DNA from: an uncultured Gammaproteobacteria bacterium
Lineage (GTDB): Bacteria > Patescibacteriota > Patescibacteriia > UBA11705 > JABHMO01
Length of the DNA: 49,323 nucleotides
Assembly: GCA_964434235.1 (NCBI GenBank)
Contig: CAYSUN010000003.1
Span: 1 to 49,323 of the forward strand
Reading direction: 5' to 3'
In this document: positions 1 to 32,700 of the stretch, one piece after another
Numbering within the stretch: position 1 is the stretch's first letter
Layout: every line of letters begins with the position of its first letter
The notes under the pieces: model-generated
What the model was told of the DNA's origin: nothing
Database searches by the model: none
What the model saw: only the letters and a program-made list of their open reading frames with translations
Translations under genes and position numbers: made by a program

Positions 1-3000
1 CAGGAAAAAGAGGATCGGAAACGACTTGAATACACTCATAAAAATCTCTTTCCAAAGCAATACAATCAACAATTTCTTGACAATATGAATAATTTGAACA
101 ATCCGCACTCGGCCCAGCTCCAGCCAATAAAGCACTTAACCCTGCTGTGTTAGCGTTAACAGAAGGTTGTGGAGCATAACCTAATTTAGCGCTATTTAAA
201 TAAGTTTCAAAAGAATAATAAGGCAAGATTGCACCGCCATCTTCATCTACTTGTCCAGTATCATTCATCAAAATACAACCATCTTTTCGACTAACCGCAT
301 TACAACTTGAAGTATCAATACTTTCATTATTTATATAATAGTAAGCCTTACCTGTTAGTTTATCTATTGCCCCAAGAGAACTATTAACTGGTGTTTGAAT
401 GTCAGTTGGATCCACAAAAGCTGTACACATATTTTCATTACTTGGACATAAACCTACCCAACCCTTATACGCAATATCTGAGGTTTTGATCATTTGATTT
501 GAACCATCATTGTAATAAGATTTTTCATCACAAGGAACCAAATTACCCTCATTGTCTTTGGCAAACCAACCATAAACTTTTTGTTGCCCAACTAAATTAC
601 TAGTATAACTACAAGTCTTATTACCTGGATTTTTGAAATACAAAGTTGAACCTTTACTATCTTTGTATTTTTCACAACCATTTTCTAAATTCGTACATAG
701 TGGTGAACTAATGTCCTCGTAAACATCAGGATCTAAACGATAAAAAACATTATTCCAATCTGTCTCTGGATTAGCTAAGTAATAATTACCAGTAGTAGAA
801 TTTACTGCTAAATTTGGCAAAGCCAAAGCTGTACAACCTTTTTGATTGCTAGCGCACTGTTTACTGGTATCATAAACCAAATACATTAACTGATCTGCCT
901 GAACATTATCTAAAGTAACTAAACATTTATTTTGAATACTATCCCAAGTATATTCACCTGGCACATACTGATCAAAATTATTACATAAAGCACTTAAAAG
1001 TAGATTCATTTGATCCTCAATATCTCCATTGGCCTTAACAATTTGAATGTAACAGCTATTAGTACCAGCTGAATACTTACCGGTAGTTGTTGAATTATTC
1101 AATTGTCCACCCAAGGTATTTAATGGATTACTTAAAAATATGTCCCAATTTTTACTGACTGTATCGCAAATAACATCTGAAGGCACAGTGTCTTGGTGTT
1201 GCTTAGCAAAAGGATAAGCACTGTTTTGGGTATTGATCATTGCTTGACAACCAATATTATTAGCTGAACATAAGCTAGAAAAACTCTTGAGATAATGTAT
1301 TGTGCCGTCTGTATCTCGATATTCTCGACAACCAAGCTGAGCTTGAGCTAAATAATTAGCTTGATCAGCTGTATCTGAATTTAATTTATAATTACAAGTA
1401 AGCGGAGTATTCCAAGTATTTTCAATCACATACTTATAATCATTGACCTTGGCTACCTTAAAATTATCTATATCAAACATCAATAAAGAATTAGCCTCTG
1501 CTATCTCAACGCCAACAGATCGACCAGAACCAAGACTTGAAGCCGGAATTCGGACATCATAGAATGTAAAATTTTTCTGTAATACTCCCTCAAAAATCAA
1601 TTCACCTTCTCCAAATCCAAGGTCATCAGTTTTTACATAAACCCTAAACTTTTTATCAACACTTATGTCACTTAATCCCTTAATCCAAAAAGAAAATGAA
1701 TAATCACCATCGTTTAAATTAGTTGTTTCTGGATTAGTATAAATCATTGACTCTGCATAACCACCACCACTAGCTACGCGCAGAAAAGGACCAAAATCAG
1801 GCGAAACACGAAACTCACCATTAGAATAAACTAAATTACCAATTGTTGCATCCAAAGTTTCTGGTTCAAAAGTATAATTAGCCACTATTTCTTCAACGCC
1901 AGATTGATTACCTTGATATTCCTTACAACCAGCATTAGCTGGAGCACAAGTTTGGCCTTCGTTTGGAATAGTCATGAAAATACATTCTCCACTTTGCCAA
2001 ATGCCCTGTCTTTCAATACACTCATCTGAAGTTGCGTACTTTATAGTTCTACGATATGGCAAACAATTCTCTGAACAAGAAATTGTTTTTGACATTATTC
2101 TAAAATATGAATTACCAGCTTCATCGAAAAATTGACGACAGTCTGGATTTCTTTTTTGTTCAAAAATTGAAGCACTACACTCATCTGAATATGAATCCAT
2201 AACTAACTTTGGTGCACCATTACCTTCTTTTTGCAAAGTATAAGCTTGTAACTGATAACCTGAGACATCATCACCTTCCCAAGTGTAATAATTTCCACAT
2301 AAATGAGCATCCTCCGGTAATTTTCGACACAATCTCATTTCCGTAAAGTATTCTTTGGATTCTCCGCCAGAAGCTAAAGCATCCAAATTTGTGAACTCTT
2401 CGCAACCAGCTTCAGCTGAATTACAAGATTGACCAGATTCTGGAATAAAGTACAAAGGAAAAATTTGATTTGCAAAAAAACTGGATTCTTGTTTATAAGA
2501 AGAATAACCACTACACTCTTGCGGACAGTAATCATTATAACCAGTTGTACCAAAAACAGTATTACCCTCCCCTGCTGGACTATAACCATCACAGCCAACT
2601 TCTTCGGCAGAGCATAACTTAGCAAAATCTGTACAACCTTTTATTGCTGGTGTACTAACCGCATCATCCAGCAAAGCAATATTTTCTTTTTCAGTTGGTC
2701 GGCCATAATAATCATCATCAACATCAAATTTACAAAAAATAGCAGGAGCACCATTATTGAATTCTTCCGTTAAACAATCAGCATTATCTTGACAAACAGT
2801 TCCATTGTTAATTGTGCCAAACTCATCGCCACAATAACCAACTCCGACATTATAACAAGACAAATATTCTGGTGCATTTTTTAAATATTTAACATTTTGA
2901 CTAGCATAATCATTATAAGCATGTCGAGCTTGAGAAGTTGGTAAATCCAATTCTTCTAACATGACTTCATCAAAATACGCAGCTGACTCAGCATTGATTA

Positions 3001-5443
3001 TAACTTTCATTCGTTCATAAGAATTTTCAATAAGCTCACCGTAATAAGTTTTTGGAGAGATTGCCACTACTTTAAACACATCTTGCCAACTTCCTAAATC
3101 AGCATTATCAGCGCTCACGTATTCATCCAAGACTCTCACATCATAATCATCTGAGTTTGGCTCAATCGCTAAATCAATACTAACATCACCAATGGCAGAT
3201 TTTTTAACTTTAACTGAAACAGCAAAATATCTTTCATTTGGATTTTGAACAACAGAGATCCAATCTGACTCCAACTCTTCTAAATTTCTTAAATTTAAGG
3301 AATAATCTCCACTTAATTTATCTTCATTATCTATAACATAAGGTCCGTGTAAGCTCCAACCTGGCACATTATAAATATTGCCATAAGTATAAACACCATC
3401 AAAAATTTCAAATCCACTATTTGGAACTAGGTTTGTGCCCAAGCCTGGTTTAGTTTGAACTAAACGAGTACAACCCTCAGCCTCTGGCGGACATTCATAA
3501 TTATTAATTTTTCCGTTTAAATAAATTCTTGAGTCAGCCAAATCTGACCAATCGAAACTATTGTTTGGATCTCGCCAAGAGCTGTACCACAAACAACCAA
3601 CATTGCTTTCATCACAATTTTTTTGATCAACTGTATTTAATAAAACACTAACTTTTTCTTTTTTTGAACTTTCCAAACTACGACAAGAATCATAAACACC
3701 AAGACAACTTTGACCACCAAATTTAAAAGTTCCACTTTCAGCTGCACAATAACCCCAGCCTTTACATGAACCATCTTCATTTTCTGAAATACAACTTGGC
3801 ATATCCACACAAACCTCTTGACGATCGCTAGCTCCTGAAGCTAACAAAACTGGCCCAGCAACTGAAGCTTGGCATTGAGTTTGAGGATTTTTTAAAACCC
3901 AATTTGGATCAATTAAATGGCAATATGGTCCTGGATTAGCAAGATCACAGTCATAAAAACCATTAATAACTTCCTGCAAAGAAACAGCTGGCCCACCTTC
4001 TAATTTTTCAGCTGCAATTTCCCAGCCAATCGGAATAATTCTGGCTTTTCGCATTTTTACCAAATTTGAATAACAATAACCTAATTGATAACAATTTGTT
4101 TGATCATTTTTAATATCGTTTGGACCAATAAAAGTCATTCCACCACTAATCAAACTTTGATCAATTGCTTCTTGTACAGTCAAGGACTTGCCCTGCATAG
4201 ACATTCGAACTGCTTCGGCAAAATCAGCATTCATAACACAATTATTAATCTGACGAATTTCACTATTCCCGTTAACTGGACAATTAACATACTCACTCAA
4301 TAAATCTATCTGCTTGGTCGCTACAGTAAAATTAATTTTGTTGGAAGCAAATTCTTTTTCTAATTGTTCACCAGTAGCATATGACTGACTGAGAGGATCA
4401 AAACTCTTTGGATCATTGGCAATACCTTTTTTGAAAATTTTATCCATTAAATAATCAGTCCACAATTTAGAAACAAAAGTATTTAAAAATGCGACTGGTA
4501 CTTGAAACGGAATTTCAGTTAAAACATCTTTGGCCATTGATATTTCTGTCTCTGGTGTTTTTTTAGCTTGTTCAATTTCCGAAGCAGTATGACTTCGCGT
4601 TAAAACTGCCGGAGTTTTTATATTTTTTCCAGTTACTCCACTAACACCCTTAAAGCCCTCATTTTCCTGTCTTTGTCTTAATTCAGCATCAACGTCTTCA
4701 TTTTGTTTATCAATCAAAGAACCTTCCATTGTTAAATATGAACCTATTTCTGATTTACTAGGCGAAAAACCAACATCAAAACTTTCTTGTAAATAGGCTA
4801 AACTTGTTCCGTATGGATCCTTGGCTTTATCCAAAACATCATAATACTTAGCAGAAACTGCGTTACCAAAAGCCTCCCAATTACCTTTTAAATCGTTCAA
4901 AGTACAATCCATTGGAGCAACTTCATCATAACCAAGATCTAGATAAGTAAACTGTAACCCTAACTTAAACTTTAATTCTAAATCTACACTAGGATGACAA
5001 ATATCTACCCCAAAAAGATCATTCATATTACCAACAAATTCATTAACTAATCCATCTTGAATATTTTGGGTAAATTCACCAATAGCTTGATCGTAAAACA
5101 TTGGTTGTTCTCCCCAGTTTCCGGTTGAGATATAAGTTACTGTTTGTTCTGCAGCTGTCTGAGCCATGCGAATTAAAGTATTTTTCAAAGTAACAGATAC
5201 AGTCAAAATCATACCCTTAAAAATCTTATCCTTCAGTTCTTCTTTTGTTTTTGAAGCTACAGTTGCAATTGCATCCTTCACTTGTAAAGCAACACGCTGA
5301 GGCAAAGCAGCAGGATCAACACTAACTTGAGCTTGAGCTTCACTCGGAAACAAAAAAGCTATAGCTGATATTTGAAAAACAAATACAAAAGCAACCAAAC
5401 TAAGAATTATATTTTGGGTCTTTTTTTGGGGAGAAAAAATCAT
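1..5443 (-). CDS. Giant secreted/membrane-anchored Cys-rich protein, >1814 aa, 3' end outside the window (not in ORF track)
   Basis: Manual translation from ATG at 5443: MIFSPQKKTQNIILSLVAFVFVFQISAIAFLFPSEAQAQ (signal-peptide-like, AQA). The same frame reads as protein at spot checks (3616 CDESNVGCLWY, 3493 CPPEAEGCTRL, 2614 CSAEEVGCDGY, 1948 CAPANAGCKEY) and at the edge (...CIALERDFYECIQVVSDPLFP). NLVPNSGFE...YFDEVMLEE resembles a CBM4/9-type jelly roll. Not every codon was checked. Confidence 0.88.
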   Translation of the reverse strand, partial: MIFSPQKKTQNIILSLVAFVFVFQISAIAFLFPSEAQAQVSVDPAALPQRVALQVKDAIATVASKTKEELKDKIFKGMILTVSVTLKNTLIRMAQTAAEQTVTYISTGNWGEQPMFYDQAIGEFTQNIQDGLVNEFVGNMNDLFGVDICHPSVDLELKFKLGLQFTYLDLGYDEVAPMDCTLNDLKGNWEAFGNAVSAKYYDVLDKAKDPYGTSLAYLQESFDVGFSPSKSEIGSYLTMEGSLIDKQNEDVDAELRQRQENEGFKGVSGVTGKNIKTPAVLTRSHTASEIEQAKKTPETEISMAKDVLTEIPFQVPVAFLNTFVSKLWTDYLMDKIFKKGIANDPKSFDPLSQSYATGEQLEKEFASNKINFTVATKQIDLLSEYVNCPVNGNSEIRQINNCVMNADFAEAVRMSMQGKSLTVQEAIDQSLISGGMTFIGPNDIKNDQTNCYQLGYCYSNLVKMRKARIIPIGWEIAAEKLEGGPAVSLQEVINGFYDCDLANPGPYCHLIDPNWVLKNPQTQCQASVAGPVLLASGASDRQEVCVDMPSCISENEDGSCKGWGYCAAESGTFKFGGQSCLGVYDSCRSLESSKKEKVSVLLNTVDQKNCDESNVGCLWYSSWRDPNNSFDWSDLADSRIYLNGKINNYECPPEAEGCTRLVQTKPGLGTNLVPNSGFEIFDGVYTYGNIYNVPGWSLHGPYVIDNEDKLSGDYSLNLRNLEELESDWISVVQNPNERYFAVSVKVKKSAIGDVSIDLAIEPNSDDYDVRVLDEYVSADNADLGSWQDVFKVVAISPKTYYGELIENSYERMKVIINAESAAYFDEVMLEELDLPTSQARHAYNDYASQNVKYLKNAPEYLSCYNVGVGYCGDEFGTINNGTVCQDNADCLTEEFNNGAPAIFCKFDVDDDYYGRPTEKENIALLDDAVSTPAIKGCTDFAKLCSAEEVGCDGYSPAGEGNTVFGTTGYNDYCPQECSGYSSYKQESSFFANQIFPLYFIPESGQSCNSAEAGCEEFTNLDALASGGESKEYFTEMRLCRKLPEDAHLCGNYYTWEGDDVSGYQLQAYTLQKEGNGAPKLVMDSYSDECSASIFEQKRNPDCRQFFDEAGNSYFRIMSKTISCSENCLPYRRTIKYATSDECIERQGIWQSGECIFMTIPNEGQTCAPANAGCKEYQGNQSGVEEIVANYTFEPETLDATIGNLVYSNGEFRVSPDFGPFLRVASGGGYAESMIYTNPETTNLNDGDYSFSFWIKGLSDISVDKKFRVYVKTDDLGFGEGELIFEGVLQKNFTFYDVRIPASSLGSGRSVGVEIAEANSLLMFDIDNFKVAKVNDYKYVIENTWNTPLTCNYKLNSDTADQANYLAQAQLGCREYRDTDGTIHYLKSFSSLCSANNIGCQAMINTQNSAYPFAKQHQDTVPSDVICDTVSKNWDIFLSNPLNTLGGQLNNSTTTGKYSAGTNSCYIQIVKANGDIEDQMNLLLSALCNNFDQYVPGEYTWDSIQNKCLVTLDNVQADQLMYLVYDTSKQCASNQKGCTALALPNLAVNSTTGNYYLANPETDWNNVFYRLDPDVYEDISSPLCTNLENGCEKYKDSKGSTLYFKNPGNKTCSYTSNLVGQQKVYGWFAKDNEGNLVPCDEKSYYNDGSNQMIKTSDIAYKGWVGLCPSNENMCTAFVDPTDIQTPVNSSLGAIDKLTGKAYYYINNESIDTSSCNAVSRKDGCILMNDTGQVDEDGGAILPYYSFETYLNSAKLGYAPQPSVNANTAGLSALLAGAGPSADCSNYSYCQEIVDCIALERDFYECIQVVSDPLFP

Positions 5444-12429: not shown

Positions 12430-12753
12430 TCAACGTAAAAACTGCTGTAAATCTGTTTCACTAATATTGCCATTCTGTATCTGCCCAATTACATTTAATA
12501 AATTCGCGTCTTTTCCTGCCCCATTAGTGACAGAATCAAATCCCCCAAGTATTTCTTGATATGTGCCAAAAGCTTCCCGAAAAAATGGCCAAGCATACAA
12601 ACCTGCGATTATTAAAGGCACCACAATAATTACAATTTTCACAATATTCATTATTTGCTGAAAAACAATATACTTCCGTATTTTTATAACCATTTCATGT
12701 ACTTCTTTGGTGTACTCTAAATTTTTTTGTAATAATTTTTTTAATTCCTCCAT
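12430..12753 (-). CDS. Hypothetical single-TM protein
   Basis: 107-aa ORF co-oriented with the nrd genes; helical N-terminus and TM IVIIVVPLIIAGLYAWPFF. Confidence 0.75.
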   Translation of the reverse strand: MEELKKLLQKNLEYTKEVHEMVIKIRKYIVFQQIMNIVKIVIIVVPLIIAGLYAWPFFREAFGTYQEILGGFDSVTNGAGKDANLLNVIGQIQNGNISETDLQQFLR

Positions 12754-12782
12754 ACTATAATAAAGTAATTTTAATTAAAAAT

Positions 12783-13469
12783 CTAACGAACCTTGATCAC
12801 TCGAAACCAATCCTTTAACGGTACAATAATTTCATTTAACTGTTTTTTGGTATAACTTTTTTCTTGCAAAAAACTATTGTCCACTAATTTACCAGCTACT
12901 ACAAATTGCTGTAAAAAATATTTATCAGCACCTTTAACTTGTTCTGCCATCGCCACAATATCTTCTGGAGTATGCAATGAAGGTAAAATAGTTGACCGAA
13001 ATTCATGAGCTATTCCACTGTTCTTTATTATTGTAACACTTTTCTTAATTTCTGGTAAGTCTATTTTTCGACAAGTTACTTGAGCATACTTAGACCACGG
13101 TGCTTTTATATCCATGGCTACATAATCAATCATTTTTCGATCAATTAATTTTTGTAGTAATTCTGAGTTTGTTCCGTTGGTGTCCAGTTTCACCAAATAA
13201 CCAAGTGCTTTTAGATTTCTAACAAAAGATAATAACCCACGTTGAATCGTTGGTTCTCCGCCAGTAATACACACAGCATCCAAAATTTTTCTTCTACCTT
13301 TTAGAAAATTCAACACGTCATCAGTGGCTAAAACTTTGGCAATTCCTTTAACAATATCTGGATTATGACAAAAAGAGCAGCGAAAATTACATCCGATTGT
13401 AAATATAGTCGCTGCTATTTTATCTGGATAATCAAGCAATGTTGTTTTTTGTAATCCCCCAATTAGCAT
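12783..13469 (-). CDS. nrdG: Anaerobic ribonucleotide reductase activating protein (radical SAM)
   Basis: GCNFRCSFCHNP (CxxxCxxC), ITGGEPT, KLDTNG, YVAMDIKAP; adjacent to nrdD; start MLIGGLQK. Confidence 0.93.
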   Translation of the reverse strand: MLIGGLQKTTLLDYPDKIAATIFTIGCNFRCSFCHNPDIVKGIAKVLATDDVLNFLKGRRKILDAVCITGGEPTIQRGLLSFVRNLKALGYLVKLDTNGTNSELLQKLIDRKMIDYVAMDIKAPWSKYAQVTCRKIDLPEIKKSVTIIKNSGIAHEFRSTILPSLHTPEDIVAMAEQVKGADKYFLQQFVVAGKLVDNSFLQEKSYTKKQLNEIIVPLKDWFRVIKVR

Positions 13470-13503
13470 AGGATTAAAAATCAAAAATTATACCCAGAAT
13501 ATA

Positions 13504-13650
13504 TTAAGCCTTATCAAATATTTTATCAAAAGTTTTCCTGTCATCAAATTCAGCTTTTTTACCATCATTCCAACGTTGGACAGGACTTAAATAGCCAACC
13601 ACTCTTGAGTAAACTTCACATTTTTGTCTTTGTAGTTTTGTAGCAGCCAT
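13504..13650 (-). CDS. Stand-alone 48-aa NrdD glycyl-radical domain (not in ORF track)
   Basis: Manual translation MAATKLQRQKCEVYSRVVGYLSPVQRWNDGKKAEFDDRKTFDKIFDKA*; YSRVVGYL...WNxGKxxEF matches the NrdD C-terminal glycyl-radical signature. Confidence 0.9.
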   Translation of the reverse strand: MAATKLQRQKCEVYSRVVGYLSPVQRWNDGKKAEFDDRKTFDKIFDKA

Positions 13651-13753
13651 AATTTTGATTTTACAAGATCAACAAGTTTTCATACAAAATAAGATTTTTT
13701 TAATTTATCTTATTGAATTGTAATTTAAAACTTGTAATCTGTATTTTTATTTT

Positions 13754-15832
13754 TTATTTATTTTCTTGTATATTTTGAGAATTTTGTTCTGATTGCATAA
13801 TATTATCAGTATAGCCCATTTCTTCATCACAATATGGACAATACTCATGTTCTCCATCAATATAACCGTGAATAGGACAAACACTAAAAGTTGGAGTTAT
13901 AGTAAAATATGGTAAATGAAAATTCTCAGCAATTTTTTTCACTAAATTTTTAGTACTTTCAGCTGAAGGTAAACGTTCACCAATAAAACCATGTAAAACT
14001 GTCCCACCAGTATATCTAGTTTGTAAATCATCTTGCAATTTTAAGGCTTCAAAAATATCATCAGTGTAACCAACTGGCAATTGGGTAGAATTTGTATAAT
14101 ATGGAGCTGATTGATCTCGCTGATAAGAATCTTCATTAGCTACAACAATTTCAGGAAATTTTTCTTTGTCCAAACGAGCAAATCTATAAGCTGTGCCCTC
14201 AGCTGGAGTTGCTTCAAGATTAAAAAGTTCATTTGTTTCATTTTGATAATCCATCATTTTTTCACGCATAAAATCAAGGATTTCTCGCGCAAACTTATGA
14301 CCTTCTGGATGAGCAATGTTCACTTTGAGCAAATTCAAACACGATTCATTCATACCATTAAGCCCAATTGTGTTGAAATGATTTTTCCAATATTCAGAAA
14401 ATCTATCTTTGATAGCTGATAAATAAAATCTAGAATATGGATACAAACCACCTTCAGTAAATCGTTCTAAAGCTGAACGCTTGACCTTTAAACTTTTCTT
14501 GGCTAAATCCATTAAATAAGACAATCTTTCTTTGTATTCCTCTTTATCTTTTGAAACAAAACCAAGACGAGCTAAATTTATTGTAACCACACCAATTGAT
14601 CCAGTTAAAGGATTAGCTCCAAAAAGACCTCCTCCACGTTTTCTTAATTCTCTATTATCCAAACGAAGACGACAACACATACTTCGAGCATCTTCTGGAC
14701 TCATGTCACTATTTACAAAGTTAGAAAAATAAGGAATTCCGTATTTAGCGGTCATGCCCATTATTTTTTCAATAATCGGCGCATCCCATTGCCAATCGGC
14801 AGTAACATTATAAGTTGGAATTGGCCAACTGAGAACTCGTCCCTTTTTATCACCTTCTGTCATTATTTCAATAAACGCTTGATTAAACATGTCCATTTCA
14901 ACTTGAAATTCCCCATATGTTTCTTTTTGTGGTTCACCACCAATAATGATTTGTTCAGTCGCTAAATTTGATGGCACAAATAAATCTAAAGTTACATTAG
15001 TAAATGGAGTTTGAAAACCAACTCGAGTTGGCACATTAATATTATATAAAAATGTTTGAACTTGTTGTTTTACTTGCTCGTAATCTAATTTATCATAACG
15101 AATAAACGGTGCAACATAAGTATCTAAACTGGATACGGCCTGAGCACCAGCTGCTTCACCCTGAAGAGTATAGAAAAAATTAACTAATTGACTGAGAGCT
15201 GTACCAAAATGTTTTGGTGGCTTACTTTCGACTTTACCACGAACACCACCAAATCCCTTAAGCAATAAATCCTTAAAATCCCAACCACAACAATATGGTG
15301 CTAAAAGTTGTAAATCATGAATATGGAAATCACCATTTACATGAGCATCTCTAATATCTGGAGAATATACTTTATTTAACCAATAATTTGTACTAATAGT
15401 TGAAGCAACATAATTATTCAAACCTTGAAGAGAATAATCCATGTTACTATTTTCTTTGACCTTCCAATCAAGCTGACTTAAATAACTTTCCATTAACTCA
15501 TCTGAATTAATCATTGATTGTAAATCACGAAACTTAGCGTGTTGATCTCTATAAATAATAAAAGCTTTAGCTGCTTTGATCAATTTATTATTAATCAAAA
15601 TTTCCTCAACAATATCTTGAACCTCTTCAACTGCAGGAATTGATCTTTCGTGAAATTTTTTATTTAAAGTCTCAACAACTTGGTCAGACAAAGTATCAGC
15701 TTTTTCCTGATCTGGCTCCCCAACTGCTCTCATAGCATTGAAGATAGCTAAAGAAATCTTTGCTTGATCAAAATCAACAATTCGATCATCTCTTTTTCTT
15801 ATTTGAATAATTTTGTTGGCTGTGTAAGTCAT
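13754..15832 (-). CDS. nrdD: Class III ribonucleoside-triphosphate reductase with ATP cone, lacking the glycyl-radical C-terminus
   Basis: ATP cone (IRKRDDRIVDFD), HIHDL, PYCCGW, RSMCCRL, GSIGVVTINL, EATPAEG, YTGGTVLH and zinc site CPIHG...CPYC; ends without an RxxGY motif. Confidence 0.95.
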   Translation of the reverse strand: MTYTANKIIQIRKRDDRIVDFDQAKISLAIFNAMRAVGEPDQEKADTLSDQVVETLNKKFHERSIPAVEEVQDIVEEILINNKLIKAAKAFIIYRDQHAKFRDLQSMINSDELMESYLSQLDWKVKENSNMDYSLQGLNNYVASTISTNYWLNKVYSPDIRDAHVNGDFHIHDLQLLAPYCCGWDFKDLLLKGFGGVRGKVESKPPKHFGTALSQLVNFFYTLQGEAAGAQAVSSLDTYVAPFIRYDKLDYEQVKQQVQTFLYNINVPTRVGFQTPFTNVTLDLFVPSNLATEQIIIGGEPQKETYGEFQVEMDMFNQAFIEIMTEGDKKGRVLSWPIPTYNVTADWQWDAPIIEKIMGMTAKYGIPYFSNFVNSDMSPEDARSMCCRLRLDNRELRKRGGGLFGANPLTGSIGVVTINLARLGFVSKDKEEYKERLSYLMDLAKKSLKVKRSALERFTEGGLYPYSRFYLSAIKDRFSEYWKNHFNTIGLNGMNESCLNLLKVNIAHPEGHKFAREILDFMREKMMDYQNETNELFNLEATPAEGTAYRFARLDKEKFPEIVVANEDSYQRDQSAPYYTNSTQLPVGYTDDIFEALKLQDDLQTRYTGGTVLHGFIGERLPSAESTKNLVKKIAENFHLPYFTITPTFSVCPIHGYIDGEHEYCPYCDEEMGYTDNIMQSEQNSQNIQENK

Positions 15833-15927
15833 AATTATTTCTTTTTGTTTTCTCCCTCCCAGGATTTATAGAGTAATAAAAAATAGCCTCTAAAATGCAG
15901 GATCTATTTTTTATAGTGCGTATCTAC

Positions 15928-15956
15928 ATTATACGCCAATTACAAACATGCGACAA
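15928..15956 (-). promoter_or_regulatory. Sigma70-type promoter for nrdD
   Basis: Minus strand TTGTCG-17 nt-TATAAT. Confidence 0.6.
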
Positions 15957-16025
15957 AGTTTAAACTTAATTTAAACTTTTACCTAAATTTTGTCTTTATT
16001 TAAGTGTCGCATAATCTTTAAAAAC

Positions 16026-16034
16026 TTATCCACA
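16026..16034 (+). promoter_or_regulatory. Consensus DnaA box upstream of the nrdD promoter
   Basis: TTATCCACA exact match; a single box, so function is unproven. Confidence 0.4.
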
Positions 16035-16081
16035 GAACATAACTATTTTGACTAATTTTTTAAACCAAAAATTAGCTTACT

Positions 16082-16157
16082 GCCGGCGATTTGCAAGGCA
16101 ACTTTTTATCCTGAATTTAATTCAGGATAAAGTAAATATTGAATTCAAATCGCCGGC
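16082..16157. repeat. Nested palindrome
   Basis: Perfect 12-bp arms gccggcgatttg/caaatcgccggc enclose tttatcctgaat-tta-attcaggataaa. Confidence 0.7.
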
Positions 16158-16280
16158 CCACTTAAAAACAACAGCGAAGACTAGTGGTTTCTTTCTTACG
16201 GGCTACACCCGTTATGTATGACTCTTAGAATAAACATACTTTTTTATTTAGACTATTTTACTATTAATTTACGTTTTTAT

Positions 16281-16477
16281 TTGTCGCAAAATACATAAAT
16301 AGCAAGGCGGGGTCTGCCCCAAACCAGTCTTCATTTCAATCAGACGGTTCAGGGTAAAGGGCATATTGTCACACTGCCTGCCTACCATAGACTTGTCGAA
16401 GGTAGGAGCCTGCCTGCCTGTCTTCGACCATGAGCTCAGACCGAATGGCAGGCAGGTTTGCCGAAGGGTGGCGACAA
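16281..16477. repeat. Mosaic of nested GC-rich palindromic elements
   Basis: Outer arms ttgtcgc/gcgacaa; inner gccccaaacc...ggttcagggtaaa, cctacc/ggtagg and cctgcctgcc/ggcaggcagg enclosing gtcttcgac...gctcagac. Confidence 0.65.
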
Positions 16478-23732: not shown

Positions 23733-26700
23733 TTAATAAATGTATTGATCTTCTGGAATTTGTGTGGGTTCTGGCAAGGTCACAATATTAAGCATTACGT
23801 TTTCAAGCTGACTTTCCAATGTTGTTGGATTTCCTTGCAACCAAACGCCTTGATAGTTTAGATCAGCAATACAATCAGTTGGACACAAAGGCAAGCCAAA
23901 AACAGGTTCAGCTGAACAACGTTTACCATTCGCTACATTTAAACAACCCTCACCGTCTGTACATGCTTGGCAAATACCATTAACACAATCTCCAGCACAA
24001 TCAAAATCACTGCTACAAGAAAGACCTGCACAAAGCCCATGATATCTATGCCAAAATTGGTATTTTAAATCTGTTTCATCTAAATTTATACTTCTGATAT
24101 AGAATAAATGAAATGGTGTTCTATTAGTATTGATGAGTCCTATTGTGTTTGCTCGATTTTCAAACTCAGTATAATCGTCAGCATCAGTTAAAACAACATA
24201 AACATGGTGTGAGAAATTAACTGGTACAGAATTTTTCACCTCACCAAAATTATACAGATACCGACCATCATTATAAGTTTGCTCAACCCTTGATGCTATT
24301 TGAGCAGCACCATTATAATTATATGGCGAAGCACATTTATCATAAATACCTACCGCACATTTGTTCTGACAATTACCGGTGGTACATACCTTCTGACAAA
24401 AACCAGATGCACACTGTGAATTGTTTTCACAACTTACAGATGAACACCTACCAGGTTCGCCACAATTATAAGTTTGAGCACAAGTCGCCGGTGAATCTAT
24501 ACAATTTTCCCAATTTTCAGAACAACTTAACCACTGAACAAAATTCTCAGCATTTCCCGCTGGATAATATTCCTTTCTTAAATCTCCCGAACGTGAAGTC
24601 TCTAACATATAATAAGCATTTTCACCAAACACATCATCAATACCATTTATGTGAGTACCATCAGCCTTATCAATTCCATTAATCATTTTTTTAATAATAT
24701 CTTGATGAACCCTATCTGGATCATACGTTTGCATACTGCCACTAGTATCAGCAAAGAAAGTAAATAAAACTTTTTTATTTTCATAATCATCATAAGGACC
24801 CTTGCAATCTTGATCATTATTTACGCAAGTTTGCACACTTGGATCACAATAATCAATCAAATAATCGCCATCATTATCAATACCATCACTACACTGAGTT
24901 GGATAAGTTTCATTTCTATCAAAAGCTGAGTCACAGCTTGGGTCAGCAGGCAAAAACTGCACACTACTATTATAAGTATTGCAATAATTATTTGACGCAG
25001 TACAATCATCACAACCCGCAAAATCACACGTACCATCGCCATCATTGTCCCAACCATCATTACAAATATAATCAAAATCTTCTAAAGAATCTGTAATGGA
25101 ATCACACCCAGGGTCACCACCAATTTCAGAATAATCAGTAAAGCCATTGCCATCATTATCAATACCATCTGAACATTGACCAAGAAGATACTCTTCTGGA
25201 TTATCGGGTGGCAAAGCAGGAGAAATCCAATCATCAGAATCAAAACTTGGTGTGACTATAAACTTATAAGTATCATAAGCTGGTCCTGATATTTCAAGAG
25301 CAAACTTCAAATCAAAAGCTGAACTATTGCCAGTTGCAAAAGGGTCTGTTCTAAATGAATAAACATAATGGGCAAAAGGATCTTCGTCATAATAATTAAA
25401 GAACCTTTGCAATTCACTATTGTAACAAGTTAGTTTGTCATAACCGATTGGACAATTTGAACAAAATTCCCCCGGGATCACACATTGATAATCACTAGGA
25501 TTGCCACCAAACTCAACTGGGCACCTGTTTGGCTGTTCTCCTGGCTCAAGCTGCTCAGCTTCACACACTGCTCCAGTATTAATAACATTAGTTTTTACCC
25601 ACTTAAAGTGATTCAAAGGATCCACTGGCAATGATTGTTGCAAGGTGTTCCCAAATTCATTTTGCCAAGATGGCCAAGAACTGAAAGTTCTACCTCGAAC
25701 ATAAGTACCAGATGCTAATTGTGGAACTTGTCCATTGTGAGTTGATTTGTAAATATTTAAATATTGTCGCATCAAAACCATATCCATAATACGACGAGTA
25801 TCTCTAATAAGCTTAGATTTTTCTGGTTGCACACCTTGATTCGTTACCATGTTAGTATTGAACCAAAGAAGATTAACCATTTGAGCATAAATATTTTTCG
25901 TTGCTTCATTAGCATTCAAAGTGTAGCCAAGAACATAAATATTATTATAAATTCTATTTTCAGTTTGACCATTTGTTTCTGCTACATTACTGGAAGCCAC
26001 GTAAACAGTTGCACCGTCTTGAACACCATCATAACAAAATTTACCAAAGTCATCTTCCTGACAATCCAAAGCAATCTTGTTTGGATTAGGGGTTGGATTT
26101 GGAGCATACTTTTGATACCAAATTTCTGGCGGTAAATTTTCTGAATTTTCATAAATTCTCAAAGAAATTGCATCCGCTGCATAATCATTAGTTGGGTAAG
26201 GCAAACCAGTACTTGGATCAACTTTATCGTTTACTCTAATAAAGAAATATTGCTCAAATAATTCAGGCTCTTCCCACGGATCAGTATAACTTTTACATTT
26301 TGGATCACCAATCCAAGTATCTGCATTATAATCTTTTTCGCCATCACCATCATTATCAATTCCATCATTACATTGATTTTGGAAATCACCAGAAAGTTGA
26401 ACCCACGGTAATTGTGATTCCACAAAAAATCCTTGATCTTTGGCTAATTCAGTCAGATTCATGTGATAAAAATCTCCACTCAAACATTTTGAATTCATGT
26501 CATCCAAACTACAATGAGCAACTGAACGATTATTACCAGTTACGTCAAGAACATTGTCATCAAATGTCCATAATCCTTTTAGATTTGGCTCACTTGTCGG
26601 ATCAATAATTTTATTAAGATTTGGGGCAAGGTCATCAGTATCCCAAACGCTAAACTCATCAACAAAACCAGCCAATGAAACTGAAGCTGTTCCAGTTTTT

Positions 26701-29700
26701 CCTAGCCCTCCAATATACAAATCACTATAACCATAACCAGGTGACGGTGGTTCTGTCAGGTTTACTGGCCAATAATTTAAATCATCAATACCAAATTCGT
26801 CTGGTACAGTAGCCACTTCTTCTCCATTAACATAAAGATGAGAAGTGTTTACGCCATCAAAAGACAAAGCAATATGATTAAAGCCACCAGAAAGTAAACC
26901 AGCTCCAGCTTGCGTTGTTCTCACTATTTCTGCTCCATTTGTTTTTATTGAATAAACAATTGAACGCTTATCTGTACAACCAGTACAATTGTTTGTATTA
27001 GCAAAATTACCATAAGCATATTCACAACCATTATCACAATTTTCACCCCAATATCGAAAAGCTAATTGAACGTGATTATTGGTACTAGGATCTTGATCTA
27101 AATTCTTATAAAAAAGTCTAGAAAATTTACTATCAGCATATCCTTCATGATAAACCCAAGATTCAATCATCCAGTCGTTATTTGGACTTGACTCTGAACT
27201 CATAAAGCCAAGATTAGAATCTGAGACTTGAACATAATCTTGATTTCTATCAAAATAAATTCCGTAGCGTGGAGTTACTTCTTTGGTAATAAATTCACCT
27301 AGACCGATATCCACCTTTGGCAAATCATCAGCAAAACCAGGATTACCAAAATCTCGACAATAAAATAATCCTACATTGAAATTCTTTTCATATATATAAG
27401 TTGTTTGATATTCTCCAGTACTAATCAAATTAGTAAATTTACCCCAACGATTTTCACCATTGTTGTCAGGATCTGGCGCATAAGCTGATGGTTCCCAAAG
27501 ATTGTCACAAAGCAAAACTTGGTATTTAGCATTGCCAGTTGTTTTTTCACCAACTGAACTTAATTCTTGACCAAGAAAAGTACCCATTTCTTCGGCTATC
27601 TTATCAACAACAATTACAACATTAGCAGAAATATTAGCTGTACCATTTTTATTATTACTAACTACTTCAACAAATTCATAATCCATTGCTTCGTCTGGTA
27701 ATGGTTGCTGAGCATCTTGATAACAAACCCCAGCGCCATTAGCATAAATATAATCAGCACAACCGGCCATACCAAGGATTAAACTTTCATCACTAATTTT
27801 CCAATCGTACACCCATTCATAAACACCTGGTGATTCAACAATTGGCTGATTACCTTTTCGAGCAATTGCGTTGAAAACAGTTTGCGTATTCGGTTTTGTA
27901 ACAAAAGTTTGTCCAGGTGTTACGGCTACATTATCCACTCGACAAATTTCATTACCAGTAACAAACACACTTGAAATATCACCAAGATTTTCGCCACAAC
28001 TATTTTCAAGATCTTCAAACTTGATAAGATATTCTTTATTTGCCAACAAAGTTGCACTTGGCGTAATAGTTACAATAGAATCACCACTAATACTTTCAGA
28101 AATAGAATATTCTTGTTCAACTTCACAATAACCAGCCTCAGCAAGACCAACCTTAACAAACATATTTTTTACAAACATTTTGACTTTTTGATAAGTTTTA
28201 TTGAAAAAGCCACCTTCATAACTGATATCTGGACAAGATCCAGAAAAACCAAAATAAACCGAACCTTCAGGCAAAACTACTTGCTGATCAAAAGCTACTA
28301 AAACTTGAGAATTCAAACAAACATCTGTTTCATTATTATAAGGATGAGAGTGATTATTATCGATAGAAGCTGAAGATTCACAAATTTCTATTGTGTCTTC
28401 TTCTGAATTATCCCCACAACTAGAACACTGTGGATCAGCTGGATAATCAATTGCTCCGTCCCCATCATTGTCTTGACCATCTGAACATTGAGCAGGTGTT
28501 TGTGAATTATCAACATTTTCACCATCAGTTGGTGAAGTACAATCTGGATCACAAGTATTACAGAGTTGACCAGCCTCACAAAAATCAAACAAACCATCAC
28601 CATCATTATCACGGCCATCACTACAATTGCCTATTTCATCAAGTTCACTGGTATCGCCAGCTGCTTGACAACCAGGATCTCTAGGCAAGAAAGTTGTATT
28701 ACTGTTATGAGTACCGCAATAATCATTATCATAATTACACGTACAACCTTGAGCTCCATAATCACAAAATCCATCTCCATCATTATCTAAACCATCACTA
28801 CAAGCCACATTTTCACACGATCCACCCTCTGAATCATCTTCCGAACTTTCGCAACAAGTATCATCAAGATCAACCAAAGTATCAGAATCATCATCAAGTA
28901 AATTATTACACTGTTTTTTTGTTCCCGGTGTATCTGAATAATCCGAAACATTCGGTAAAATATCTTTATACTTATTAATTAAATAAGGATCATTTGTTCT
29001 ATATTTCAACTTACCAAAACCAGTTTTAGGACTAGCGTCCTCAATCATGTTCGCTGAAATATTCGTAACTGCCTGAATGTAATTAGTTACTACATTATAT
29101 TCAAAAATATAGGCATTCTCATTATTTCTAGTTAAAATAACTGATTCAACATTTCCACTTGGAATAACCGTGGCAACATCATAAGGAGCACCCTTAATCG
29201 CCCCAGCTGGGCAGGTATTGCCTTCACTTGGATCACACGATAAATCATATTCACACTCTGGGTCTTCACCTGGTTCGAATAAAGTATTTCCATCTTGACA
29301 ATAAGAACCATATTCAGTTTGTGAACCTTTATTTATACATGAAGTTGAACAATATTCTGGAAATGTACAAACACAATTGGCTGTACCAAAAATACAACTA
29401 GCCCCATCAGGCCCTAAATATTTACATTCAGCTTCACAATCTTCATCAGGATCAAGAGATGAACCTCCGCCACCTAAATAATTTTCTCTTACTCCATTTC
29501 CACAGCAATTATTACATGAACAAGCTGGATCTGAACTATTACAATTAACTGTTTTTAAATTTTCAATGCAAGTGTCAGCTTCTGTTAATTGACACGCCCA
29601 AGGATAAACATTATCTGCTGTACATTCACTGCAATTAATAACCTTTTTACCGTAAATAGTTTGATTACCAGCCAAAGGATCAGCCACACAACCTGCAGTC

Positions 29701-32700
29701 CCAATCAAACAAGACACCTTGAATGTATCAGCTGAACTTTGACACTGTTCACAATTTATATTTTTTATTCCGACATGATTAGCTGTATCACAAGTTTGAC
29801 CAGCATAACACTGAACTAAACGTGTACCAGGTGCATTACAACCCTCAGTTTGATCTATTTCACAAGTAATTGTTTTTTTGAAAACTCCTGCTCCAATATC
29901 AGAACAACCAACCGCACCTTCATTACAAGGAACTTGCATTGTGCTTAAACAACCAGCGCCCCCAGTACAAGCTTCTATTACTTGATTACAACTAGGATCA
30001 CCAGAATGGCAAGATTCACTTTTGGTGCAATTGTTATCACAACTTGGAAAACCTTTCCACACGCACTTATTTGTGCAAAGTGGATTATTTTCAATGGAAC
30101 AAACACAATCATCACCAGTGGTACATTCATGCCTTAAGTCATCAAGACAAACTGCTTCGCACTCTTCTCCAATATCAATCCTGCCGTCACCGCAAAGTGC
30201 CATATTTTGGATTTCACTACTTTTATATTTTGATCCAGTGTGTAAACATAATGAAGATAATCCTGATTTTGCATTATTAGAACCTTTATCATCATCTTCT
30301 CCCGGTTCAACAATTCCATTACCACATTCATAACCTTGAGTTGTACCTTTGTTTAAGCAGGTGCTAGTACAAGCTGGCGAACCACTAGTTCCATCGTCAC
30401 ACTCTTCCCCAGCATCAACAATGCCATTGCCACAATCAGTACTAATAATTGGTTCAGTTAAACAAATATCACTACAACCATCGCCAGGTACGTCATTTCC
30501 ACCATCACATTCTTCTCCCAAATCATAATCAATTTTATTATCACCACAAACAGCAGCGTAAGGCTCACCACCTGTTACTTGGCATTTATCATTACAATAA
30601 GGTTGAACATTAGCTCCAAGATTTAAATTTAAAACTGTAGCAATGACCGGATACTGACTTTCCCAAGTCCAGTCATAATCAAATGGAGTTAACAATTGTC
30701 CATTTGCGTCACATTGATTTGGCATTGAATATGGTTCTGTCCAATATTCAACTCTTTCTCCAACTTTTTCTGAAATATAATATTTTGGCACTAATTCTAC
30801 TCGATCAACTTGACATTTAGTATCATCATTTTTAGTTTTAAATATCCAACTAAAAGCGTCATACGCACCAGTTGCGCCAACCTCAAAGGTATCCGCACTA
30901 GTACATTGATTATCTGGTTTATAATAAGTTGAATTTTGTTTAATAGCAGAAAGCAAAGCTGAATCTGTAATAAAATCATCGTTACTTAAATTTTGACAAG
31001 TAATAGCTGAATTTTCTGGACAAACAAGTTGCGCAGTTAATTCTGCATAACCAACAAACTCACCTTCAGAATAACAACCACAAACATAATCAAGTTCAGT
31101 TCCTTCGCCTTCAATATAACCACCTGTAACATCAATTCCTCCATCTCCGTCATTATCCAAATTATCAGAGCAATCGCCATCCGGCGCCCCAGCAGTTGCA
31201 TAATTCAAATTACTTAAAACAACTTGGCTAGAACTTTTAATTCCGTTCGTTAAAACTACCCGGTAATATGTATTAGGACTTAAAACGCCATTATTTAAAC
31301 CGATAAGTGTTCGAAAAAATCTACCCTCAGTAAAATCTGTTCCAGAATTATACTGAATATTCAAATTTTCAACAGGACTAAGGGAAGTACAATCAGAAGA
31401 AAAACAAGAATAAATTTTTACTGTGCTTGAATTTAAAGTTGTATCATCCATCTCGATATTAAAGTTGGCTGTAATCGCTGTATTGATACAGGCTTCATCA
31501 CAATTAGGATAAGACCTGATAACTTTTGGTTTTTGAAATTTTACTTGTAAAAAGCCTTTTTTATAAAGTGAATCAAACAAAGCTGCTAAATCAGCATCTC
31601 CAGGCACAGCTGAAACTGAAATTTCATAAGGGTCCCATGGCAAACTTTCAAAAACAGTATTGGCAGGGTTTTCATCAACTTTTAATTTATAATAACCAAT
31701 ATATTTCTCACTATTAGTTGGATCAGTACAAATTAAATGATTGGTAGCAGAAACTGGTGAATAAGGATTAAACTCAGAACAAGCATAACCAGCAAATTGA
31801 ACCTTGGATTGATCAGCAGTTGCAACTTGCCAATCCCAATTTTCATCAACCAAAGCAATATCCTGACATTGGTATTGACCAGAAACAATATATTTAGCAT
31901 TACCATAAAGTTCATTAATTAAACCAACAAGCGGAGTTAAAAGTAAATTTTCTGGTATGCAAATTTCTTCTTTTGTTAAAAATGACCATTTATAATTACC
32001 AACCATGTACTTTGAAGTACTTGTAGCAGTCGTTCCTATCGGTGCCCGAACTCCAGAGTAACCACCACGTACTGTAATTTCATACCAAGTATTTGGAAAT
32101 AAATAATTATCAATATTATCTACCAGCCCAGGATTAATTCCACCGCTAACTGTGTTATTATTTGAATCTTTGAGTGAACTATATAAATTAATTCTTGATA
32201 AAGCTTGACCAGAACCAACACATATACAACCTTCACTATCTGGCTGGCAAACTGCTCCACTAGAATTTTGACAACTATAATTTAATGTTTCTGAAGCATA
32301 ATCAGTTGATTGATTGAAATACTGAATTATTCTAGAAATACAAACTCCTGGCACAACACTATTTTCAGTGCTTGAACAAGCGTTTAGATCACATTTTACA
32401 CCAGTTGAATTTAAACATCTTTTAACAACTATATTATTAGAAAGTGTTGTTGGTTCTACTGGTAAACTAAAAGTAAAACCAATCGTGCCATTAATACAAG
32501 CTGAGCTTGAATTACGATATGGTGAAGGCGATTGACTATAAGCGCCAGGTAAACAAGTTCGTTCTAAAACAGCTAAAATTTCTGGTAATGGCCCAGTACT
32601 CAAAACCCACATATACTCTGATGGTAAATATTCAAACTCTTCTTCACAAGACCCAGAAGTTTGACAAATACCAGTAGCACAACACTCTTCTCCATTGCTA

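Follow-up and report, generated by a model that had tools for sequence, protein, structure and literature searches.

A class III ribonucleotide reductase with its glycyl-radical loop apparently encoded as a separate 48-residue chain between nrdD and nrdG

To our knowledge, a glycyl-radical enzyme is viewed as one chain with its radical loop buried inside it, and one exception is known, GrcA/YfiD, a back-up part for pyruvate formate-lyase (PFL). The stretch of DNA analyzed here (the window: 49,323 nucleotides [nt], contig CAYSUN010000003.1) raises the question of whether a class III ribonucleotide reductase (RNR) can carry that loop on a chain of its own. Three consecutive genes lie on its minus strand, in the order nrdD (13754..15832), an open reading frame (ORF) for a peptide of 48 residues (13504..13650), and nrdG, which encodes the activase. 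Our reading, to which we give a probability of roughly 0.8, is that this operon produces a functional two-chain class III RNR in which the small chain is an obligate part.

The large chain, 692 residues in length, is recognized by the NRDD family profile PF13597, which matches residues 127–671 at profile positions 1–532 of 562 (E = 1.6e-178; 595 bits, cut-off 26.2), as well as by NF006126 (1038 bits, cut-off 548) and TIGR02487 (498 bits, cut-off 326). An ATP-cone (PF03477, E = 2.9e-18) occupies residues 9–99 (15536..15808), and the chain aligns with Thermotoga maritima NrdD (PDB: 4COI) as far as residue 610 of the latter (CPVCGK). The finger-loop cysteines C386 and C387 (SMCCRLRL; 14672..14677), which from family knowledge we take to be the thiyl-radical site, belong to a run of five residues (S384, M385, C386, C387, and R388) that is invariant in all 48 split large chains compared and likewise in all 42 fused relatives; the split large chains also retain the zinc ligands, the NxN flap, and the SMCCR finger loop. 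The metal site is predicted from conservation and from likeness to the T. maritima enzyme to be C652-x2-H655-x9-C665-x2-C668 (13829..13879), with C652, H655, and C665 invariant and C668 at least 90% conserved among split large chains; it appears comparable to the T. maritima zinc site, given as CxxxHx6CxxC in an excerpt of PMC4493059. Beyond C668 the chain continues into a tail (residues 669–692, 13757..13828, with the stop codon at 13754–13756) that begins with a conserved D-E-E-[MI]-G-Y and is followed in the window by 18 variable Q/N/E-rich residues. Conservation is at least 90% at D669 and E671 and complete at G673, and the remainder varies in length and sequence; many relatives (L019–L063 region) have a variable acidic linker ending in ERDLIxAxA or VEQILI, an ending that the window tail lacks. 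The large chain closes with ...FSVCPIHGYIDGEHEYCPYCDEEMGYTDNIMQSEQNSQNIQENK*, without an RxxGY motif, and the radical glycine (RVxGY) is accordingly found in the two-chain unit and not on the barrel polypeptide.

The 48-residue ORF starts with an ATG at 13650 and ends at 13504, 103 nt downstream of nrdD and at a frame offset of +1 relative to it, and reads MAATKLQRQKCEVYSRVVGYLSPVQRWNDGKKAEFDDRKTFDKIFDKA. PF13597 matches this peptide at profile positions 531–562 of 562 (E = 1.1e-10; 41.3 bits, cut-off 26.2), and since the large ORF takes up positions 1–532, the two tile the profile end to end. In the alignment with 4COI the peptide covers residues 610–647, including the RIVGY radical loop, and the two ORFs meet at residue 610. 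Gly19 (codon GGC, 13594..13596), the predicted radical glycine, aligns with the RIVGY and RITGY loops of the solved NrdDs 4COI and 8P23 and is invariant in 48 of 48 peptides, as are M1, E12, Y14, S15, R16, P23, W27, N28, K31, E34, and R38; Cys11 (codon TGT, 13618..13620), directly before EVYSR, is at least 90% conserved, and the peptides range from 44 to 52 residues in length. A Pfam scan of the window peptide (E ≤ 0.01) returned PF13597 only, without the Gly_radical domain of the PFL type (PF01228). Judged by sequence, the two-chain unit is a class III RNR in every respect tested, save that its glycine is not on the barrel chain.

The position of the break can be read against the fused relatives, in which the C-terminal region follows the pattern FS[VI]C-x2-[HC]-GY-x2-GE-x4-C-P-x-C-x3-C-E-V-Y-S-R-V-V-G-Y. 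The large chain of the window leaves this pattern after C668, and the peptide, after a leader of 10 residues, resumes it at C11-E-V-Y-S-R-V-V-G19-Y, that is, at Cys11, 8 residues ahead of Gly19. The initial annotation of this locus had described an NrdD that ends after the zinc site in a Q/N/E-rich tail with no RxxGY motif, followed 103 bp downstream by a separate ORF in another frame with its own ATG, and both statements are confirmed from the sequence. It had further proposed that the glycyl-radical domain as such forms the separate gene; this stands for the radical loop and the C-terminal tail, which by the alignment are the only parts to separate, and falls for the zinc half of the C-terminal domain (C652, H655, C665, and C668), which stays on the large chain.

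How general this layout is was determined from a scan of relatives, in which one genome per species was taken and 65 loci with a relative of the window NrdD were obtained. Six of these could not be scored, five (L036, L037, L044, L048, and L064) because they end before the C-terminus and one (L062) because it has no peptide match. Of the 59 loci in which both parts are covered, 53 show the split of the window, a recurrence far greater than chance would give, and 6 are fused (L012, L014, L017, L018, L039, and L052), with L017 counted as fused because it reads through in frame to the end of its contig. The peptide gene is followed by nrdG in 52 of the 53 split loci, and in the remaining one (L055) the contig ends first. 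For statistics on spacers, frames, and peptides we used the 47 cleanly alignable split loci together with the window (48 loci in total). Their spacers span 11–411 nt (median 93) with no conservation of length; relative to nrdD, 22 loci have the peptide ATG in frame 0, 13 in frame +1, and 13 in frame +2; and stop codons are present in all three frames between the ORFs in 40 of the 48, including the window, in which the AT-rich spacer (13651..13753) holds 3 stop codons per frame. The split large chains are 60–85% identical to that of the window. The peptide is under purifying selection: when the ratio of non-synonymous to synonymous substitution rates (dN/dS) was computed over a 34-codon block in 1128 pairs, 860 pairs were saturated at synonymous sites, and the 195 usable pairs gave a median of 0.155 and a maximum of 0.49, with a median non-synonymous difference in the block of 0.22.

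These figures bear on the simplest alternative, namely that the window contains a broken gene, produced by an assembly error, a frameshift artefact, or recent pseudogene formation. The window is represented by one sequence, the read support of which is not documented, and one relative, L057, does have a change of frame elsewhere in its nrdD (3792–3794, near residue 270, seen as two high-scoring segment pairs in frames 1 and 2) that is probably an assembly frameshift. However, the layout recurs, with differing spacers and frames, in 53 genomes that were assembled independently, purifying selection acts on both pieces, and some 190 nt of extra sequence separate the conserved blocks, which no single insertion or deletion can yield. 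We regard a broken gene as having next to no chance of being the explanation. The split nrdD proposed at the outset is thus borne out as a conserved two-gene arrangement, rather than a sequencing break, by the 53 of 59 split loci, their variable spacers and frames, the selection on the peptide, and the adjacent nrdG.

Alternatively, the two ORFs might be joined again after transcription, whether by an intron, by programmed frameshifting or bypassing, by read-through, or by protein trans-splicing. Phage T4 nrdD contains a group I intron, and inteins are present in the nrdD of relatives, at residue 386/387. On the other hand, Rfam gave no match in the spacer at E ≤ 10 (the five weak matches within 12500–16300 all lie outside it, and an intron or riboswitch there was rejected on this basis) and no family anywhere in the window at the gathering score (0 matches). 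In most loci the spacer, at 11–128 nt, is too short for a self-splicing intron, and it is unconserved; all three frame offsets occur, and the stop codons described above interrupt every frame in most loci. A tail of ∼24 residues and a peptide leader of ∼10 residues are far below the size of a split-intein half, Pfam finds no intein domain in either ORF, and the peptide ATG is invariant. Rejoining is, in our estimation, highly improbable.

It should be noted that the nrdD genes of some relatives carry insertions of their own. Those at residue 386/387, exactly in the catalytic CC finger loop, are in-frame inteins (L034:3337-4326 and L052:2447-3019; Intein_splicing, with LAGLIDADG in L034). Other in-frame insertions lie at residue 274/275 (L034:2035-3000, L054:3823-4626, and L059 between 1075 and 2033), and those of L034 and L054, the two that were scanned, have no Pfam match. 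A mobile-element origin was rejected because the long spacers (141–411 nt) contain no homing-endonuclease-like ORFs. The longest spacer, the 411 nt of L025:5068-5478, is a tandem repeat of 49% GC, compared with AT-rich spacers elsewhere.

Whether the break arose once or repeatedly was approached with a tree of 86 NrdD cores from which the C-terminal region had been removed. The 46 Patescibacteria split rows form one group (Shimodaira-Hasegawa-like approximate likelihood ratio test support 81), and L013/L015 and L062 fall elsewhere. The tree requires 3 state changes, 2 of which are forced by well-supported branches. In an approximately unbiased test, the grouping of all 49 split rows in one clade is not rejected (p = 0.15); the tree alone is therefore no proof of a recurrent split, and recurrence rests mainly on the break point in L013 and L015. 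In these two loci (L013:4950-5157 and L015:4950-5219, labeled Desulfuromusa, Deltaproteobacteria) the split falls at another residue: the large chain ends ...SCP-HHQEGQAA and the peptide starts MAT-KC-DGKTEVYSR, that is, MATKCDGKTEVYSR, which places the break inside the second zinc knuckle (CPKC) and suggests that the fourth zinc cysteine is on the small chain. This different break point argues for a second, independent split event. At L062:2998-5672 (labeled Caldisericum), NrdD has the ending of a split large chain (CPYCDEEMAQKEDNSNAPKFFVE) and is directly followed by a ThyX-like gene, identified by eye; neither a radical peptide nor nrdG was found in this 8-kb locus, even at E ≤ 10.

Most of the split loci are labeled Patescibacteria, and the closest relatives of the window nrdD carry the labels Kuenenbacteria, Parcubacteria, Falkowbacteria, other Patescibacteria, and, in several cases, “uncultured Gammaproteobacteria.” Ten genomes are titled “uncultured Gammaproteobacteria bacterium” (L001, L004, L010, L025, L038, L045, L049, L055, L060, and L065). 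Their NrdDs nest among those of Patescibacteria and have the same split layout, and the label looks doubtful for these ten.

In the window, nrdD, the peptide gene, and nrdG look, from the sequence, like one operon. No terminator-like site was found in a scan of 12600–16100 (0), and promoter-like sites in the same interval are not enriched (24, compared with 17.2 ± 5.0 in shuffles). A promoter-like site upstream of nrdD on the minus strand, TTGTCG-17-TATAAT (15928..15956, 10/12), is likely the promoter of the operon, although a pattern scan is weak evidence for this. An own promoter of the peptide gene was considered as well, and the eye-picked candidate TTGTAT-N18-TAAAAT before its ATG fails the rule of the scan, so that separate transcription is not supported. 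The gap between the peptide gene and nrdG is 19–34 nt depending on the start of the latter (minus strand, from 12783 to 13469 with ATG or to 13484 with TTG): the ORF itself opens at the TTG, but translation likely starts at the ATG at 13469, from which relatives align. The nrdG product is a radical-SAM activase of the NrdG2 type (TIGR02495, 203.6 bits, cut-off 131.15) with the cluster motif CNFRCSFC. Shine-Dalgarno-like 4-mers precede 8 of the 48 peptide ORFs (shuffles 2.8 ± 1.6, maximum 8), and the window peptide has none upstream. As such a 4-mer is present at −18 to −4 in merely 1 of 25 window genes (starts 5493–48082), the upstream regions of which are AT-rich, its absence before the peptide is normal.

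Structure prediction was applied to the two chains together and to the large chain alone. For the complex, large-chain residues 100–692 and the peptide were supplied each as its own alignment, alongside three controls. The complex scored 0.88, the best control 0.00; of 80 solved complexes, 58 attain that mark, as do 2 of 110 mismatched pairs, a comparison that is rough only, given that own alignments were used. The three runs of the complex share at least 94% of contacts, with a predicted local distance difference test (pLDDT) value for the partner of at least 80, and the modeled interface comprises 171–172 contacts. Those of lowest error are predicted between peptide residues 9–15 and large-chain residues 648–652 and 661–665, both strands of the zinc ribbon, and the model sets Cys11 beside the zinc-site cysteines C652 and C665. 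Peptide residues 16–45 would contact the NxN flap (126–132) and the barrel at 332–338, 364–366, 543–552, 565–593, and 612–622. What such a model indicates is that the prediction treats the two chains as an NrdD cut in two, which is likeness rather than binding. With AlphaFold2, the split large chain alone has a mean pLDDT of 77.6, with its zinc-ribbon and tail blocks at 45–71, and the fused relative L012 has a mean of 84.9, with the corresponding blocks at 82–93; the difference is clear only in the zinc-ribbon region, where the blocks reach about 65–71 in the split chain versus 93 in the fused one.

Taken as a two-chain enzyme, the system would be expected to work as follows. The ATP-cone, the zinc ribbon, and a ten-stranded barrel containing the catalytic cysteines would come from the 692-residue chain; the 48-residue chain would contribute the buried loop, with the radical on Gly19, and a C-terminal tail lying across the barrel surface. 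The peptide would be translated separately from its conserved ATG and, in the docking mode suggested by the model, would add a strand (residues 9–15) to zinc-ribbon strands 648–652 and 661–665, the remainder threading into the barrel so as to insert Gly19. By analogy with the known chemistry of the family, NrdG would then abstract a hydrogen from Gly19, and catalysis would proceed from the resulting radical.

Several observations weigh against the two-chain reading. The complex model does not confidently place Gly19 in contact with the finger loop at C386/C387; its score may represent a memory of the solved single-chain NrdDs (T4, T. maritima, and P. copri); and the flap and the finger loop are of low confidence in both AlphaFold2 monomers, split and fused. 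The related genomes are all metagenome assembled. Finally, the analysis covered 49 kb of this genome, in which no other RNR gene is present, and a second, full-length nrdD may exist elsewhere in it.

The single-chain NrdD/NrdG systems of phage T4, E. coli, T. maritima (4COI and 4U3E), and P. copri (8P23) have the same family profile, ATP-cone, and barrel, and they also have in common with the system described here the finger-loop cysteines, the zinc ribbon, the RVxGY loop, and an adjacent radical-SAM activase. Here, in contrast, a break separates the zinc ribbon from the radical loop, a 48-residue protein made up of loop and C-terminal tail is translated separately, and the large chain bears a new tail composed of DEE[MI]GY and a variable part. 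A closer parallel to the small chain is GrcA/YfiD, described in excerpts of PMC13450708 as a spare part that replaces the damaged loop of PFL; like GrcA/YfiD and Y06I of phage T4 in that source, the peptide is a small free-standing protein with a radical-glycine loop, and the likeness would extend to its presumed activation by the parent's activase and its action in trans in the parent's barrel. GrcA backs up a full-length PFL that has its own loop, whereas neither in the window nor in the 53 related loci does the neighboring NrdD have a loop, and the peptide would therefore be obligate rather than a back-up. GrcA, about 127 residues long compared with the 48 residues here, belongs to the PFL-type Gly_radical family, whereas the peptide is matched in Pfam by PF13597 only.

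In the excerpts of PMC13450708, a review from 2026 (June), spare-part proteins are known for formate lyases only, and their existence for other glycyl-radical enzymes is left undetermined. We found no description of a split NrdD or of a separate class III radical peptide in the full-text literature, a search with subscription journals and RNRdb notes outside its scope. The layout is apparently new in print, and the small ORFs are already deposited under automatic names.

Why, then, should the chain be split? One answer starts from oxygen, which is established in this enzyme family to cleave the backbone at the glycyl radical (PMC13450708, in part). Oxygen-cleaved NrdD or PFL, according to the same excerpts, similarly consists of a large chain without its C-terminal segment and a small C-terminal fragment; that damage cuts at the glycine, whereas the break described here is genetic and lies ahead of Gly19. 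It is this chemistry that gives a replaceable loop its appeal. In a two-chain enzyme, such cleavage would destroy the small chain only, which is the idea put forward in the initial annotation, where the cost of damage was set at 48 residues instead of about 740. By analogy with GrcA/YfiD, it is plausible that replacement of the peptide after oxygen damage is the selected benefit of the split, although we consider this tentative, with the odds clearly on the other side. The same doubtful standing applies to the view of the peptide as an exchangeable protein-radical cofactor, loaded by NrdG on or off the enzyme, plugged into an NrdD without a loop by adding a strand at the zinc ribbon, and swapped after oxygen cleavage. 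Weighing against a replaceable peptide, the scan of 12600–16100 revealed no separate promoter or terminator for it, and the sequence gives no sign of higher or excess peptide expression. The data do not separate the replacement idea from a neutral split or from easier activation, and the three are not mutually exclusive.

A neutral or near-neutral split would mean that a stop codon and a start codon arose in the exposed, permissive linker between zinc ribbon and glycine loop, that the break was tolerated because a large interface holds the pieces together, and that it was then simply inherited, leaving an enzyme that behaves as a fused NrdD does, with no particular gain; we think this a real possibility, somewhat short of even odds. 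It would fit with genes that remain neighbors within a single operon, uninterrupted by a terminator or by an enrichment of promoters, with spacers that are ordinary unconserved intergenic DNA, with a very large modeled interface that would tolerate a break, and with conserved residues that are otherwise alike in fused and split forms. It also has a precedent in the split class II RNR NrdJa/NrdJb of Pseudomonas aeruginosa, encoded by two adjacent genes (PMC9669993, in part, citing Crona et al., 2015). There, too, an RNR catalytic subunit is divided over two genes, with a C-terminal functional module on the second chain; NrdJa/NrdJb differs in being class II and B12 dependent with no glycyl radical, and its second chain carries a zinc-finger/IscU-like module, whereas the present system is class III by profile and has its zinc site on the large chain. 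Against neutrality, the split persists across a deep clade, as the divergence among the large chains shows; there is no return to a fused gene among the 46 Patescibacteria tree rows; a second break point exists in L013/L015, inside the zinc knuckle; and the split forms have gained conserved motifs of their own, DEE[IM]GY in the tail and MSPIETKR or MAAQKLERQK at the peptide N-terminus. These points do not exclude neutrality.

A third possibility is that the split makes activation easier, in that a free peptide would be within reach of NrdG, could be activated off the enzyme, and would dock afterward, the radical becoming a diffusible protein cofactor; the loop of a fused enzyme has to swing out of the barrel to meet its activase. 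In the excerpts at hand, the buried glycine of NrdD needs a large conformational change for activation (PMC4493059), the glycyl-radical domain is highly mobile (PMC11226230), and the activase PFL-AE is able to install the radical on free YfiD (PMC13450708); in the window, moreover, nrdG lies immediately downstream of the peptide gene. The zinc domain, however, which an excerpt of PMC4493059 conjectures to be the docking site of the activase, stays on the large chain, and this argues for activation on the assembled enzyme. We see easier activation as a rather unlikely reason for the split.

Free-standing radical-loop proteins are not confined to the loci described above. A word-indexed search among proteins of 26–84 residues returned 126 clusters, the best 120 of which are 41–74 residues long. 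As had been anticipated in the initial annotation, similar small ORFs are already present in databases, some entries of 47–55 residues being automatically named “anaerobic ribonucleoside-triphosphate reductase” or “hypothetical protein”; their source labels include Patescibacteria, Falkowbacteria, Kuenenbacteria, Synergistales, and Elusimicrobiaceae, among others. A phmmer scan of 1.84 billion representatives at 50% identity (E ≤ 1e-3) gave 2743 matches, and the best 150 are all 47–138 residues long. None of the 140 new proteins among these best 150 carries upstream large-chain sequence; they comprise 122 short peptides with a start residue, 3 proteins with a zinc ribbon of their own, and 15 variants with longer leaders or motif substitutions. 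When the peptide was compared by tblastn with 50,697 phage records, 3 matches and no split form were obtained, two of the matches lying under annotated (putative) anaerobic RNR genes and one in an unannotated record.

A second kind of free-standing radical-loop protein, about 90–138 residues long, has an N-terminal CxxC...CxxC ribbon (GKCHDCG ... KCDxCF) before CEVYSRVVGY (P0121, P0125, P0127, P0148, P0149, P0157, P0158, P0179, P0187, and P0203, and further P0224–P0226, P0237, P0239, P0240, P0296, P0339, and P0351). Pfam finds only the NRDD C-terminus in these proteins, which could be whole-domain splits or true spare parts. In P0379 (138 residues), a radical-loop peptide is joined to a C-terminal glutaredoxin-like domain with the motif CDGC (PF00462, E = 4.9e-4, below the cut-off), a fusion that points to a redoxin as a possible reductant of the NrdDs in this clade.

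If the peptide is indeed an exchangeable radical cofactor, a system of the GrcA kind would for the first time be known beyond the formate lyases, and it would be obligate. Such a system would occur widely in Patescibacteria, with small-peptide matches that bear names from other phyla as well, and a hidden family of trans-acting radical loops would also take in the ribbon-plus-loop proteins of ∼110 residues and the fusion of loop and glutaredoxin. The two-chain enzyme would provide a system in which to test whether a glycyl radical can be installed and delivered in trans, to locate the action of the activase, and to measure the repair of oxygen damage, and the radical loop could be labeled or mutated without touching the 692-residue catalytic chain. 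There is also a consequence for annotation: genes for proteins of 47–55 residues readily escape notice or pass for fragments, and their large-chain partners would then be scored as truncated or non-functional RNRs, a mistake affecting organisms for which no other RNR is seen in the window or in the related loci.

As to the surroundings of the locus, the window is a chromosomal stretch with the housekeeping genes ksgA, prfB, htrA, ftsA, ftsZ, ybeY, hisS, lepB, der, pth, and dprA; it contains no tRNA gene. Two giant minus-strand ORFs are also present, one of 4039 residues (23733–35852) and one of more than 1814 residues (2–5443) that runs off the window; beside them lie genes for a TSP3-repeat protein and for one containing Big_5 and T4SS-pilin-like domains.

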